Positions 33,298 to 41,502 of a stretch of 64,000 nt of DNA are shown one piece after another. Each line of letters opens with the position of its first letter. Within the stretch, counting starts at the first letter, position 1. The notes beneath the pieces are model-generated. The model was not told where the DNA came from and did no database searches. It saw only the letters and a list, made by a program, of their open reading frames with translations. The DNA comes from Bacteroidota bacterium. GTDB lineage: Bacteria > Bacteroidota > Bacteroidia > JACPRZ01. The stretch is from positions 128,156 to 192,155 of the forward strand of contig JACPRZ010000063.1 in NCBI GenBank assembly GCA_016193485.1, written 5' to 3'. Both the position numbers and the translations under genes were made by a program.

Positions 33298-33798
33298 TTA
33301 TTTCCTGATTGGCGATTGCCGTTGAAATGGCACCCTCACAGTAAAAAACGATACCTTTTCCAGGATATGGCAACTGTTGCAACTTGCCGCTAACACATTA
33401 AATTCTTTATTAAAGGCAACTGTATCCATGTTCTCAACTGCCTTTTGCATTTCAGGTAAAACACCGGTCAAAAAGTACTCCGCTGATTTTGTCCTCTTTG
33501 GTCTGCGCTGGAGACCATTTTCGATAGTGAGTTTTATTTTCTCCAACTGATATTTTGCGCATTCCCAGTTTTCGTCTTGCCCGGCCCAATAAAGTTCCTG
33601 GTAGCGATACCCTGTCTCAATCATTGCGATGTCAAGTCCGCGAAATTGTCTCTCAATGGTCTTTAATTTTTCTTCATCTGTTCCTGTTATCCAGTCCCCT
33701 TGTATTGAATCCCTGTCCAGATGGCTGCATGACCGAACAATTATCGCAGCCAGCGCCAGGGTGCATAATCCGGTTACAATTAAATATTTTATTTTCAT
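33298..33798 (-). CDS. periplasmic class-II c-type cytochrome (cytochrome c-prime/c556-like four-helix bundle)
   Basis: Signal peptide and a single CxxCH heme motif (ASCNSCH) about 25 aa from the C-terminus, within a ~140-aa predicted helical protein. Its ATG overlaps the upstream stop in an ATGA arrangement. Confidence 0.5.
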   Translation of the reverse strand: MKIKYLIVTGLCTLALAAIIVRSCSHLDRDSIQGDWITGTDEEKLKTIERQFRGLDIAMIETGYRYQELYWAGQDENWECAKYQLEKIKLTIENGLQRRPKRTKSAEYFLTGVLPEMQKAVENMDTVAFNKEFNVLAASCNSCHILEKVSFFTVRVPFQRQSPIRK

Positions 33799-34544
33799 CG
33801 TTTGCGTATCAATTCAAGAATTCCGGTAATAAACGTCAACGGATGAACGGGATTACCGGGAACAAATAAATCAATTTTGTGCATAGTTAAAAAATTCCTG
33901 TTCAGGGCCGGACTGCCGTCAAAAATTCCCCCGCTGATGGCATCTGTTCCCGCAAGAATGATGATTTTCGGTTCGGGAATCGCATCGTAACAGATCTGCA
34001 GCGGCACCGCCATATTCTCTGTGATGGGTCCCGTGATTACAATTCCGTCTGAATGGCGCGGAGAAGCCACAAACTCAATTCCATATCGGCCCATATCGAA
34101 GTTCACATTTCCGCAGGCATTTAATTCCAGTTCACAACTGTTGTCTCCACCTGCCGAAACCTGTCTTAACTTTATTGAGCCGCTGAAGTACTTTGAGATC
34201 TCTGTCCGGATAATATCAGGATTTAACTCAATGGTTTTATCTTCACCATCCTTAGTGATCAGCCGTTCTCTTTCGTTGGTAGAAATTTTATAGTCAGTTG
34301 TAAATTTGATTTTATCGGGAAAAGCAAATGCACATTCTCCGCAAAAAGCGCACCTGCCCAGATCAATGCACACCGGGCTTCCCGTAATGGCCTCAGTCGG
34401 ACATAACTCAACCAGCGCATTTTCATCTATTGTTTCTTTTGAAATGACAGGCCTTCCCCTGAAAATTCCCGGAACTTTGGCATGAGTTACATCCGGGATA
34501 TATTGCTTTCCCTGGCGGAGAAGTATTTTTATATTATCAATCAT
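33795..34544 (-). CDS. Group-4 hydrogenase/complex-I-like fusion of a ferredoxin domain (HycF/NuoI-like) with a small subunit (HycG/NuoB-like). Canonical Fe-S ligands are mostly missing.
   Basis: FVASPRHSDGIVITGPIT and ILAGTDAISGGIF align to the NuoB/HycG core. The N-terminal domain keeps one CxxCxxC plus a CP. Confidence 0.6.
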   Translation of the reverse strand: MIDNIKILLRQGKQYIPDVTHAKVPGIFRGRPVISKETIDENALVELCPTEAITGSPVCIDLGRCAFCGECAFAFPDKIKFTTDYKISTNERERLITKDGEDKTIELNPDIIRTEISKYFSGSIKLRQVSAGGDNSCELELNACGNVNFDMGRYGIEFVASPRHSDGIVITGPITENMAVPLQICYDAIPEPKIIILAGTDAISGGIFDGSPALNRNFLTMHKIDLFVPGNPVHPLTFITGILELIRKR

Positions 34545-34558
34545 GCTTCCGGGTTAAT

Positions 34559-38575: not shown

Positions 38576-39496
38576 TTAAGCGGCAATAAATTTTCCCGTT
38601 ACGAACAGCACTCCCAAAAATATCAGCAATGAAATAGAGGTGACCGCAAAAATAAACTGCGGGTTATGGTTCATCCTGAATCTTGCCATGAAGGATTCAA
38701 TGATTCCAACGGTCATTGCAAACAGAATCTGGACCCCGATAAAAATAGGTATTGAGTAAAACCATTCTTTACCCGGGGTGAGAAAAAAATTAGCAATGAG
38801 GGCTCCATACATGGCGAATTTCAGGTTGGCCGCATAGAGTATAAGCCCAAGGTCAAATCCGCTGTTGTCAAGGATCATCACTTCATGAACCATCGTAAGT
38901 TCCAGGTGGGTTTTCGGGTCATCCACGGGCATGCGGCTGTTTTCCGTCATGGCAATAATCACGATGACAAAAGCGGCAAGAACGCCAACGGCATAAGAAA
39001 CGTAAGAACCAAAATGGAGAGAACGGAATATCTCGAAGAAGGATTCGTAACCGGTAAGAAGCGCGAAAGATCCCATAAGTATAAAGAAAGCGGGTTCAAC
39101 AAGCATGGAATAAAGCGCTTCCCGGCTTGCGCCCATGCCCTCAAAACTGCTCCCAGTATCAAGCGAAGAGATAATCATAAAAAATTTTCCCAATGCAAGT
39201 ACGTAAGCGAAGCAGACAAAATCCCATTTAAATGAAATCAATCCCGGGCTGTCGCCAAAGGGGATAAAAGAGATTGCCGCCAATACCGAAGAAAAATAAA
39301 TTGCCGGGGCGATCTGAAAAATCAAACTGCTTGTTTCGCTGTACACAGCGCCTTTTCTGAATAACCGCCAGATATCTTTCAGCGGTTGGAAAATTCCGGG
39401 ACCCTTTCTGCCGGAGAGAATGCTTTTAATGCGAATGATTATCCCGGGAAAAAACAGAGTGGTGGCGATGATCAGAAGAATCCCTGTAATGTCCAT
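38576..39496 (-). CDS. HycD/HyfC/NuoH-like membrane subunit
   Basis: 306 aa. RIKSILSGRKGPGIFQPLKDIWRLFRKG matches the NuoH/HycD loop signature. Confidence 0.65.
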   Translation of the reverse strand: MDITGILLIIATTLFFPGIIIRIKSILSGRKGPGIFQPLKDIWRLFRKGAVYSETSSLIFQIAPAIYFSSVLAAISFIPFGDSPGLISFKWDFVCFAYVLALGKFFMIISSLDTGSSFEGMGASREALYSMLVEPAFFILMGSFALLTGYESFFEIFRSLHFGSYVSYAVGVLAAFVIVIIAMTENSRMPVDDPKTHLELTMVHEVMILDNSGFDLGLILYAANLKFAMYGALIANFFLTPGKEWFYSIPIFIGVQILFAMTVGIIESFMARFRMNHNPQFIFAVTSISLLIFLGVLFVTGKFIAA

Positions 39497-39510
39497 TCGT
39501 AAATACGTTA

Positions 39511-41502
39511 TTAGTTCAAGGTTTCAACAATCAATGAAATTATGATTGCCAGAACGATAAAAATTATTCCGTATAAAATATAAAATTGCACTTTCCCGTT
39601 TTGAAAAAATCGGAACGCATTGAAAAATCCTTTCAGATATTTTATTGGAAAATCAATAAGAACGGCTTCCATCCTGTCGTAAGGATTTGTCTGCAGGCCC
39701 ACCGGCCCCGGGAACACGCCTTTTATTTTTTCTTCCTTTTTATTCATCATCAATAATGGCCGCACTAATTTTCTGTAGGAGCGGACAAACGAGTTTGCCG
39801 TATATTGAAGCTTGGCTCCCGGGCCGGTATATCCGCAACCCCAGGTAGGCGATACCAATCTGTTTGGGGAAGCGACAAGCCATCTTATGCCGAAGAGAAG
39901 GATTGAAAGGAGAATCAATGCAAAGGCGGACATGCTGATACTCTGAAATAAAGGAAAAAATTCTGCCGGTTGTCCAGTAAGGTTTTTTACAGCGGTAAAA
40001 AGTCCTGCAGGAATTACTGCGATTCCGACAAAAAACTGCGGCAGAAGCCCTATCAGGATAATGAATATTGCAATAAGATATTTCGGAAAAAGTATGGCGT
40101 TTTTCGCTTCATGCACCGGTTCATGATAGAGATGACGTTCCTTCCCTAAAAACATAATACCAAATGCCTTGGTGAAACAAAGCATCGCCAATCCGCCAAT
40201 GAGCGTCAATCCGGAGACAGAACCTATCATCAGGATAGAGAAAAGGATATGCTCTTGGTTGATTCCATTAAATAATCCGGAATAAATGATAAATTCAGAA
40301 ACGAATCCATTAAAGGGAGGCAGTCCGCAGATAGCCAGGGATGCTATGAGAAATAAAATGGCTGTTTGAGGCATCTTTTTAATTAAACCGCCAAGATGTT
40401 CAATCTCCATCGTGTGTGTTTTCTGATAAACAGTTCCCGCACCGAAAAATAAAAGCGACTTAAAAAGGGAATGATTAAGCGAATGAAGCAGCGCCCCGGT
40501 AAAACCGGCAAAAGTTAGGTAGGAATTATTTAGCCCCAGACCAATTAAGCCAAGCCCTATTCCCATTCCGATAATTCCGATATTTTCTATGCTGTGATAT
40601 GCCAGTAATTTCTTAACGTTATGCTGTACAATGGCAAGCATCACACCATATACCCCTGAGAGGAGTGATATCAGAAGAACGATGCAGCCCATTGCCAGGT
40701 AATCCATGTTTATCAGCAGGAGCATTCTGAGAATTCCAAAAATGCCAAGTTTGATGATCACTCCCGACATCACTCCCGAAATATGGGCGGGTGCAGCAGG
40801 GTGTGCATACGTAAGCCAGGTATGAAACGGAACAAATCCCGCTTTAAAAGCAAAGCCGATAAAAAAACAGATAAAAAGCAATGACCCTGCAGATGGTCCA
40901 ACCGATCTGCTATACTCGTTTATGGCATTAAAATCATAGGAACCGGTATGATGACTGATATAGATAAACCCGATGGTAAGAAAGAGCACTCCAATATGGG
41001 ACTGCACCAAAAAATTAATTCCCGCTTTGATGGTTGCCATTTTCCCGTGTTCAAAAATTACCAACAGAAAAGAAGAAATTGTCATTATTTCCCAGAAACA
41101 AAGGAAGGCAAGGAAATTCTGAATAAGGAAAATACCAATCATGGAAAAATGATTGATCATATAACTTGCAAAATGGAGGGAAAGATTACCGGGCTGATTT
41201 TCGTAACTTTTCATATAACTCCTGCCGTATAAAATTCCGGTAAGCGAAGTGAAATTGGTCAGCAGGATAAACCAACCCGCAAGGGCATCGGCTCTTACCG
41301 GTATTGTTCCGAAAACATAACCGCCATCAAAAATTTCCTGAAAGGATTCCCCAAAAAACGTTTTTACGGCAATATAAGAACTCAAACCCGCAGAAAAGAG
41401 TACGGCAAGAAGCGCAATATTACTTTTCCAATCCGCTCTTATTACGATTGTAAGAATAACGAAGAAGGCGATACTAAAAAGTGCAACAACGCTCAAACTC
41501 AT
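39511..41502 (-). CDS. HyfB/NuoL/MrpA-like antiporter-type membrane subunit
   Basis: 663-aa polytopic protein with a WLTYAHPAAPAHISGV block homologous to the NuoL/HyfB core. Confidence 0.65.
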   Translation of the reverse strand: MSLSVVALFSIAFFVILTIVIRADWKSNIALLAVLFSAGLSSYIAVKTFFGESFQEIFDGGYVFGTIPVRADALAGWFILLTNFTSLTGILYGRSYMKSYENQPGNLSLHFASYMINHFSMIGIFLIQNFLAFLCFWEIMTISSFLLVIFEHGKMATIKAGINFLVQSHIGVLFLTIGFIYISHHTGSYDFNAINEYSRSVGPSAGSLLFICFFIGFAFKAGFVPFHTWLTYAHPAAPAHISGVMSGVIIKLGIFGILRMLLLINMDYLAMGCIVLLISLLSGVYGVMLAIVQHNVKKLLAYHSIENIGIIGMGIGLGLIGLGLNNSYLTFAGFTGALLHSLNHSLFKSLLFFGAGTVYQKTHTMEIEHLGGLIKKMPQTAILFLIASLAICGLPPFNGFVSEFIIYSGLFNGINQEHILFSILMIGSVSGLTLIGGLAMLCFTKAFGIMFLGKERHLYHEPVHEAKNAILFPKYLIAIFIILIGLLPQFFVGIAVIPAGLFTAVKNLTGQPAEFFPLFQSISMSAFALILLSILLFGIRWLVASPNRLVSPTWGCGYTGPGAKLQYTANSFVRSYRKLVRPLLMMNKKEEKIKGVFPGPVGLQTNPYDRMEAVLIDFPIKYLKGFFNAFRFFQNGKVQFYILYGIIFIVLAIIISLIVETLN

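Follow-up and report, generated by a model that had tools for sequence, protein, structure and literature searches.

An ehr operon in a Bacteroidota genome

We analyzed a 64,000-nucleotide stretch of a Bacteroidota metagenome-assembled genome (MAG) (GCA_016193485.1, contig JACPRZ010000063.1, forward-strand positions 128,156 to 192,155; hereafter the window), and report that it carries an ehrABCDLS operon of the Ehr (energy-converting-hydrogenase-related) family, a lineage of the complex I superfamily, and that the operon belongs to a subfamily specific to Bacteroidota. Eight tightly packed minus-strand genes occupy positions 33298–41502, of which the ehr genes and one gene for a DUF486 (domain of unknown function) protein span 33795–41502. 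Genes were assigned by Pfam and NCBIfam profile searches of the window translations.

In the direction of transcription, the operon starts with ehrA (39511–41502), encoding a HyfB/NuoL-like antiporter-type membrane subunit of 663 amino acids (Pfam Proton_antipo_M, 3.9e-53), followed by ehrB (38576–39496), whose NuoH/HycD-like product of 306 amino acids links the cap to the membrane arm (Pfam NADHdh, 4.5e-31). Next come ehrC (37938–38570), for a HyfE-like small membrane subunit of 210 amino acids with a NuoK-related C-terminal half (NCBIfam "hydrogenase 4 membrane subunit," 7e-16; Pfam Oxidored_q2, 1.6e-4), and ehrD (36442–37875), for a HyfF/NuoN-like antiporter-type subunit of 477 amino acids (Pfam Proton_antipo_M, 4.7e-37). 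The large subunit gene, ehrL (34940–36439), encodes a NuoC::NuoD/HycE-like protein of 499 amino acids devoid of [NiFe] ligands (Pfam Complex1_49kDa and Complex1_30kDa), and ehrS (33795–34544) encodes the small subunit, a NuoI-like::NuoB-like fusion of 249 amino acids (Pfam Oxidored_q6, 3.6e-19; NCBIfam NuoB, 4e-23 and below its cut-off; NuoI/HycF-type, about 2e-5). Between these two lies the gene for a DUF486/DMT_6 small membrane protein of 122 amino acids (34559–34927; Pfam DMT_6, 1.9e-41), the only foreign gene in an otherwise regular A-B-C-D-L-S order. Gaps among the seven genes measure 2–62 bp. The eighth gene (33298–33798), which shares 4 bp (ATGA) at its start with the end of ehrS, encodes a probable cytochrome c′-like lipoprotein of 166 amino acids with a CNSCH motif near its C terminus (a weak match to Pfam Cytochrom_C_2 over the heme motif, E = 0.019).

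An original prediction, made by a model from the letters and open reading frames (ORFs) of this stretch, had described six co-directional genes in hydrogenase-4/formate-hydrogenlyase order, including a small transmembrane protein. The shared minus-strand orientation holds, but the genes number seven, plus the eighth at 33298–33798; the small membrane protein is indeed encoded there, but it is not a family component, and a DUF486/DMT_6 gene is found inside the operon only in the window. The best NCBIfam matches are Hyf subunits, and all NCBIfam scores are far below the curated cut-offs: hydrogenase 4 subunit B (HyfB) scores 473 bits against ehrA (cut-off 667), HyfF scores 234 bits against ehrD and is likewise under its cut-off, and the NuoD and NuoB matches reach 143 bits (cut-off 360) and 82 bits (cut-off 116). 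No curated NCBIfam family claims the proteins of the operon. A promoter and terminator scan of 31900–42000 gave counts not above those of shuffled sequence, using a sigma-70 consensus that is inappropriate for Bacteroidota.

The large subunit has lost the [NiFe] site

In a phmmer search of PDB chains, the closest match of EhrL is E. coli HycE (7Z0S chain E, 3.5e-36), with MbhL at 1.4e-33. The HycE L1 motif RVCGICGFAH is aligned to SIAGDTVAGH in EhrL, placing A202 and T205 at the cysteine positions and leaving the histidine in place, and the L2 motif DPCYSCTDR is aligned to NLSYCGHDL, placing S493 and G496 there. A MAFFT alignment with HycE, HyfG and NuoCD gives the same substitutions. All four [NiFe] cysteines of EhrL are thus replaced, and the signature of group 4 enzymes, the cysteines of L1 (RxCGxCxxxH) and L2 (DPCxxCxx(H/R)), is missing. 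EhrL terminates in ...HDL at the position where mature HycE ends and therefore has no cleavable C-terminal extension. The quinone-site tyrosine of NuoD is not found either, as RIEY of E. coli NuoCD is aligned to SIAG.

The former active site follows a pattern of its own in the family: x[ASC]GD[ST]xxxH at L1 and NKSFNLSY[CSA]GxDL at the C terminus recur in nearly all full-length matches of the representative scan described below, and a few sequences at about 35% identity retain RxCGxC...CYSC. EhrL also carries a hydrogenase-type β1-β2 loop (GPxHxGxxEPGHFR), in a region, G146 to F160, that is nearly invariant across all Ehr. The host genome, a 4.0-Mb MAG that is 91.9% complete and matches groundwater metagenomes, agrees with the loss of the metal site: searches of it for the maturation protein HypD (PF01924) and the endopeptidase HycI (PF01750) returned nothing, while control genomes gave matches, and neither a [NiFe] large subunit of groups 1–3 (PF00374) nor an [FeFe] hydrogenase was found in it. 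Judged by its residues, the complex cannot be a [NiFe] hydrogenase.

The small subunit retains ligands for a single iron-sulfur cluster

Aligned by phmmer to MbhJ (6CFW, 1e-21), EhrS has GGDNSC, GTDAISGG and PGNPV where MbhJ has GSCNGC, GACPTGG and PGCPP. The four positions of the proximal (N2-type) cluster are occupied by D134, C137, D201 and N231, an assignment on which the HycG and NuoB alignments agree, so that three of the four cysteines are replaced and the N2 signature of complex I (CCxxE / GxCxxxGG / CPP) is absent. The lone cysteine, C137, is not conserved in the clade, where relatives carry T, V, A, Y, I, H or D. The Asp/Asp/Asn set at the other positions is largely conserved among Ehr of the one-cluster clade, Alistipes having D-x-E/D-A.

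We aligned the N-terminal ferredoxin domain with HycF, HyfH, NuoI and cluster-complete Ehr relatives. It retains C48 (in ELCP; Cys4) together with C65, C68 and C71 (Cys5–7), which are all the ligands of one cluster, and lacks Cys1–3 of ferredoxin motif I and Cys8 of motif II, which are all the ligands of the other. This all-or-none pattern argues that one [4Fe-4S] cluster is really bound by EhrS and that the other is really gone. Judging from Thermus Nqo9 and from the way ligands are arranged in 2x[4Fe-4S] ferredoxins, we take the retained cluster to be the probable equivalent of N6b, buried beside N2, and the lost one to be presumably the surface-exposed cluster through which electrons enter. 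An AlphaFold2 model of EhrS (predicted local distance difference test score, pLDDT, 89.8) dips to 64–67 at residues 131–150, the first former N2-ligand loop, and its C-terminal domain superposes on MbhJ (TM-score 0.81, root-mean-square deviation 1.8 Å) and on HycG.

The motifs quoted in the original prediction are present in the translations, and the phmmer and MAFFT alignments bear out its by-eye register. It had correctly seen the replacement of both L1 cysteines by Ala and Thr with retention of His, the lack of DPCxxCxx(H/R) at the C terminus, the survival of a single proximal-cluster cysteine and of one ligand set in the fused ferredoxin domain, and it had rightly concluded that this is not a hydrogenase. 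Going by its ligands, the complex lacks both N2 and the distal-type clusters, through which electrons travel in all characterized relatives.

The membrane arm keeps its channel residues

EhrA residues E138, K220, H340, H344, K348 and E403 align with the channel residues of E. coli HyfB and NuoL, and EhrD keeps E128, K214, H324, H328, K332 and E387 as in E. coli HyfF. The glutamate of transmembrane helix (TM) 5, the lysine of TM7, the His/His/Lys set of TM8 and the glutamate of TM12 are thereby intact in both antiporter-like subunits, as in HyfB and HyfF. In an alignment with HycD, HyfC and NuoH, EhrB retains the GASRE, VEP, E..P.D and EL..E..SG blocks, and EhrC retains the membrane glutamate of its ENG motif and a second acidic residue.

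We also observed that in many Bacteroidota the ehr operon has a tandem pair of EhrA (HyfB-like) genes, whose products are about 665 and 675 amino acids long (L003 at 2980–6995, L010, L011, L014, L017–L019, L021, L023 and L024; L numbers designate the related loci introduced below), where the window and others have a single copy. Members of the Bacteroidota subfamily therefore differ in how many antiporter-like subunits they have.

A Bacteroidota clade within Ehr lacks the N2 ligands

According to the citations in PMC6349859, PMC10284858, PMC6688271 and PMC7894505, it was in Geobacter sulfurreducens that Ehr was defined (Coppi, 2005), and Marreiros et al. (2013) have surveyed the family. Its large subunit is defined as a group 4 hydrogenase relative without Ni/Fe-coordinating residues (PMC6349859; PMC10284858), a description that fits EhrL. 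A phmmer scan of 1.84 billion representatives for EhrL relatives returned 503 proteins at E ≤ 1e-30, and a scan of one genome per species yielded 80 related loci from many phyla. Across these loci the order A(-A2)-B-C-D-L-S recurs, matching the name ehrABCDLS used in PMC6688271.

In a large-subunit tree (IQ-TREE, LG+C20, quick search, with the Shimodaira-Hasegawa-like approximate likelihood ratio test [SH-aLRT] as the only support measure), all 74 Ehr-type EhrL sequences, the window's included, form one clade that includes Geomonas L084 of the Geobacteraceae (SH-aLRT 100). This clade is sister to cysteine-bearing group-4f-like sequences and lies outside HycE/HyfG. The label "Hyf/Ehr-type" in the original prediction needs a small correction: the Ehr/4f lineage is a nearer relative of the operon than E. 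coli Hyf itself is. Nested within Ehr is a Bacteroidota clade of 42 sequences (SH-aLRT 99) that runs from Saprospiraceae to gut Alistipes and lacks the N2 ligands throughout, except in L031, a Bacteroidota MAG with all three clusters whose position at the base of the clade is not resolved.

We took a census of cofactor ligands in 64 full-length EhrS proteins, which are NuoI::NuoB fusions throughout Ehr. The retained ferredoxin cluster has four of four cysteines in every one of them bar one mis-called ORF. The other ferredoxin cluster has been lost repeatedly, for instance in Melainabacteria, Desulfobacterales and some Spirochaetota. The N2 positions read CCCC in all non-Bacteroidota loci except L074: Geomonas, Geobacter and 28 other non-Bacteroidota loci keep the four cysteines, among them Verrucomicrobiota, Planctomycetota, Spirochaetota and Melainabacteria. 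They are lost in 32 of the 34 Bacteroidota loci, in one unlabeled MAG and in the window, confirming the earlier suggestion that this operon is more degenerate than described Ehr. Because the N2-less sequences form one clade with L031 at its base, two changes of state explain the distribution. Ehr as a whole thus forms a graded series, with three, two or one cluster. A separate case is L074, a Verrucomicrobiia MAG (EhrS at 11542–12384), which has S, E, E and W at the N2 positions and keeps both ferredoxin clusters; its N2 loss is independent and took a different route from that of the Bacteroidota clade.

Since the window has DCDN at these positions and Geomonas and Geobacter have CCCC, the Geobacter type of Ehr with intact N2 ligands does not describe it, and we file the operon as a variant Ehr subfamily. 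The literature we could search describes Ehr only as lacking NiFe ligands and as being of unknown function, and we found in it no N2-less or one-cluster Bacteroidota subfamily; it did not include the survey of Marreiros et al. (2013), so an earlier mention is possible. Ehr itself is known, and within that searchable literature the one-cluster Bacteroidota subfamily appears to be an undescribed variant.

The one-cluster genes are conserved and under purifying selection

Across the top 120 homologue clusters, which represent Chitinophagales, Saprospiraceae and Sphingobacteriales among other groups, EhrL is 67–77% and EhrS 77–82% identical to the window proteins, with the same ligand substitutions. 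EhrL relatives from Bacteroidales, Prolixibacteraceae and Rikenellaceae/Alistipes are 41–64% identical. Pairwise ratios of nonsynonymous to synonymous substitution rates (dN/dS) for N2-less EhrL and EhrS are 0.05–0.15, rough values given that dS is near saturation, and are similar to those of an N2-keeping Melainabacteria pair (0.03–0.05). The one-cluster Ehr genes are, on these sequence comparisons, under strong purifying selection. The N2-less subfamily is present in aerobes as well as strict anaerobes.

There is a weak indication of transcription: in a mouse-gut Bacteroidales isolate (L047), most of the orthologous operon is represented in contigs from four RNA sequencing libraries, which belong to four studies, although parts of it are uncovered in some runs. 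For the window sequence itself no RNA dataset is listed, and the four DNA datasets that are listed are groundwater metagenomes of one study, probably the sample from which the genome was assembled.

Host genome and gene neighborhood

The host encodes a canonical nuoA-B-C-D-H cluster, whose NuoB carries the intact N2 ligands (CCAIE, GSCAISGG and PGCPP), and a heme-copper oxidase. It also has three molybdopterin enzymes, none near the ehr operon. MrpG (PF03334) was not found in the genome. Among 301 evenly sampled Bacteroidota genomes, EhrS occurs in 14, a patchy distribution.

Clustering of all ORFs from the 80 loci showed that only A, B, C, D, L and S recur as a core, and no redox-partner gene recurs beside the operon in these loci; other neighbors are scattered and local, such as a Crp-type regulator or an RNA methyltransferase. 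The DUF486 gene, separated from ehrL and ehrS by 12 and 14 bp, has no homologue inside the operon at any of the 80 related loci, and in the 11 class-level relatives that we read its homologue stands without an Ehr gene within 1.5 kb on either side. This DUF486/DMT_6 half-transporter gene is thus a lineage-specific insertion, either a hitch-hiker or an accessory subunit. The cytochrome c′-like gene also has no homologue at the 80 related loci, and it shares no homology with the gene that follows ehrS in Niastella. Its product belongs to a Bacteroidota family of "hypothetical proteins" whose matches include "putative cytochrome c" clusters; the gene may be co-transcribed with ehrS, and it is not a component of the Ehr family.

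Divergently upstream of ehrA, on the plus strand, lies an NfnA/PyrK-like gene (41628–42458; FAD_binding_6 and DHODB_Fe-S_bind), separated by a DUF559 endonuclease-like gene (42593–43024, plus strand) from an NfnB/GltD-like gene (43097–44551, plus strand; Fer4_20 and Pyr_redox_2). This NfnAB-like pair is not conserved beside Ehr in the 80 loci. Directly downstream of the operon are a gene resembling ArsC-type low-molecular-weight phosphatases/arsenate reductases (32891–33382, minus strand) and then a TatD-family hydrolase gene (32137–32913). Farther along the window, a 1410-amino-acid ORF (45114–49346, plus strand) fuses a complete AcrB-type resistance-nodulation-division pump (residues 1–1041) to an HlyD/CusB-type membrane-fusion domain (1103–1323), an unusual single-chain architecture, and is followed by an outer-membrane efflux protein gene (49359–50684, plus strand).

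In 11 loci of other Ehr clades, a gene combining a helix-turn-helix (HTH) domain with a phosphotransferase-system (PTS) EIIA(Ntr)-like domain (HTH_17 and PTS_EIIA_2) adjoins the operon, usually upstream (for example L049:4351-5025, L070:4127-4915 and L067:988-1710, with Geobacter L066 having it on the opposite strand). These loci come from Spirochaetota, Planctomycetota, Verrucomicrobiota, Geobacter, Melioribacter (Ignavibacteriota) and one Bacteroidetes-labeled MAG (L053), and no such gene was found in the N2-less Bacteroidota subfamily among the 80 loci compared. EIIA(Ntr)-type proteins as a class are linked to ion homeostasis. The HTH-EIIA gene may be a regulatory link for the Ehr family as a whole.

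Possible function of the complex

With one isolated cluster and no N2, the former active site would not be wired for electrons to the cytoplasmic surface, which would make redox-driven pumping unlikely. The intact channel residues of the antiporter-like subunits point to a role in ion translocation, and channels and coupling loops together suggest that this is driven by a gradient. The complex is probably a redox-independent Ehr variant that acts as a gradient-driven (secondary) proton or cation translocator. Seated on the NuoH-like subunit, the EhrL/EhrS cap would then act as a plug, a gate and a platform for assembly, and the remaining [4Fe-4S] cluster would be structural or a redox- or oxygen-sensitive regulator.

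A bolder version, which we consider possible but offer tentatively, is that this is a complex-I-superfamily machine working without any electron transfer, in which the N2 pocket has become a conserved Asp/Asp/Asn polar or cation-binding site, the cluster is a structural pin or a redox/O2 sensor, and the cap either gates a gradient-driven ion translocator or hosts non-redox chemistry that the membrane arm powers. If this were true, the conformational coupling apparatus of complex I would already have been uncoupled from redox chemistry in nature.

Several points weigh against gradient-driven translocation or limit the case for it. The Ehr membrane arm is devoid of the MrpE/F/G-type subunits of true Mrp antiporters, and MrpG, which is present in 57 of the 301 sampled genomes, occurs in 1 of the 14 Ehr-positive ones, although these numbers are too small, and the genomes too dependent phylogenetically, to bear interpretation. 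The universal retention of the [4Fe-4S] cluster, together with the conserved Asp/Asp/Asn set and the GD[ST]...H of EhrL, could mark a functional, possibly metal-binding or catalytic, site and not just a plug. The N6b assignment of the retained cluster comes from general knowledge of the fold, and the contigs that speak for transcription in L047 may reflect DNA carry-over into the RNA libraries. The function of Ehr is called unknown in the literature (PMC10284858; PMC6349859). Finally, the abundance of Geobacter Ehr subunits responds to the electron donor, a hint that Ehr of the N2-keeping type may have a role linked to redox processes (PMC7894505).

The strongest competitor of gradient-driven translocation, though an unlikely one, is that the complex is still a redox-driven pump, in which a ferredoxin, a flavodoxin or another soluble partner, such as the NfnAB-like pair, would pass electrons to the remaining [4Fe-4S] cluster, then to a non-cysteine-ligated metal or cluster at D134, D201 and N231, and on to a substrate in the EhrL pocket. 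Asp-ligated [4Fe-4S] clusters do occur elsewhere; yet no precedent is known for a cubane cluster held by three non-cysteine ligands and a fourth residue that varies, and the Alistipes proteins have D, V/I, E and A at these positions. The invariance of the retained cluster in the census, the conservation of the Asp, Asp and Asn residues and of the EhrL motif, and the electron-donor response in Geobacter (PMC7894505) would all fit such a pump. All four ligands of the other ferredoxin cluster, the presumed entry point, are however lost. The NfnAB-like pair lies divergently upstream in the window, but neither it nor any other redox neighbor is conserved across the 80 loci.

Somewhat less probable again, and drawn by analogy, is a cap that has taken on non-redox chemistry or the binding of an ion or ligand, which would be energized by the membrane arm and would bind a cation or substrate at the Asp/Asp/Asn site and in the polar EhrL pocket. 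Hydration of CO2 by the Cup proteins of cyanobacterial NDH-1 and by DabAB provides analogies. Such a role would be in keeping with the strong conservation of the substituted residues and former active-site motifs, the lack of a redox partner encoded nearby, the occurrence of the subfamily in aerobes and strict anaerobes alike, and the HTH-EIIA regulator that often precedes Ehr operons of other phyla. The proposal is nonetheless purely analogical: Pfam and NCBIfam searches detected no known hydrolase or hydratase catalytic motif, and in Alistipes the Asn has become Ala and the second Asp Glu.

That the operon is a decaying, functionless remnant of a Hyf-type hydrogenase operon is very improbable. 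It has lost cofactor ligands in both hydrophilic subunits and has acquired a foreign gene, but all its genes are intact, identity among the top 120 homologue clusters is 67–82% across orders, conservation extends to the substituted residues, and the N2-less state is common to a large clade. Pseudogenization is excluded by the intact genes, their conservation, the dN/dS values of 0.05–0.15 and the intact channels.

A bona fide Hyf/FHL-2 (formate hydrogenlyase 2) hydrogenase whose ligand loss is an alignment artifact has a negligible probability: the gene order resembles hyfB-C-E-F-G-(H::I) and the best NCBIfam matches are Hyf subunits, but those scores lie far below the curated cut-offs, the tree puts EhrL outside HycE/HyfG, no maturation genes or endopeptidase were found in the 91.9%-complete genome, and independent hidden Markov model and MAFFT alignments agree on the substitutions, a concordance that refutes the artifact.

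Implications

Source annotations of the corresponding homologue clusters, most of which are from Bacteroidota, read "Ni,Fe-hydrogenase III large/small subunit," "Hydrogenase-4 component G" or "NADH-quinone oxidoreductase subunit B/C/D." Such labels can mislead metabolic reconstructions, among them those of gut Alistipes and Rikenellaceae, into assuming H2 metabolism or an additional complex I. Correcting these widespread hydrogenase and complex I annotations in Bacteroidota is of practical value. More broadly, the coupling loops and proton channels persist through the series of three, two and one clusters, and for the complex I superfamily this natural series can help distinguish the structural role of the peripheral arm from its electron-wire role. 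A subfamily that is implausible as an electron conductor also narrows the hypotheses on Ehr function, and it has culturable carriers in Niastella, Ancylomarina (L035) and the mouse-gut Bacteroidales isolate (L047).

Comparison with known systems

The nearest known relative is the Ehr of Geobacteraceae, with which the operon shares the six-gene architecture and order, the absence of NiFe cysteines, the GD[ST]...H and NKSFNLSY.G.DL motifs, the NuoI::NuoB fusion and the same tree clade, bearing out the Ehr-like assignment of the original prediction. It differs from this and other Ehr (Verrucomicrobiota, Planctomycetota, Spirochaetota and Melainabacteria), which have the four N2 cysteines and, in many cases, both ferredoxin clusters, whereas the Bacteroidota subfamily has one cluster; the HTH-EIIA regulator of 11 loci likewise belongs to those other clades and not to this subfamily.

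Group 4 [NiFe] hydrogenases (Hyf/Hyc formate hydrogenlyase, 7Z0S; the membrane-bound hydrogenase of Pyrococcus, 6CFW; and group 4f) supply the closest sequence and fold matches and have similar, Hyf-like membrane subunits. The ehr operon, in contrast, lacks the L1 and L2 cysteines, the proximal cluster, the C-terminal extension, a HycB/HyfA-type polyferredoxin or formate dehydrogenase partner, hyp genes and an endopeptidase. Complex I (Nuo) has homologous subunits and the same conserved Glu, Lys and His residues in its antiporter channels, but the ehr operon is without the N2 cluster, the quinone-site tyrosine, NuoA/J and NuoEFG, and its host has a separate canonical complex I. Like the operon, the Mbx/Mbs sulfane-reducing complex of Pyrococcus (6U8Y) is derived from a hydrogenase and no longer makes H2, although it is a distant match only (MbsL, 3.6e-11; MbsJ, 9.5e-8); in Mbs, three [4Fe-4S] clusters remain, alongside an Mrp module.

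Mrp antiporters, finally, consist of an MrpA–G set including MrpE/F/G that the operon does not encode: it has no MrpB/E/F/G, and its NuoH-like subunit and large cytoplasmic cap are lacking in Mrp. The two nonetheless share MrpA/MrpD-like (PF00361) and MrpC/NuoK-like (PF00420-like) subunits, and Mrp, which needs no electron transfer, is the working model that we propose for the one-cluster Ehr complex.

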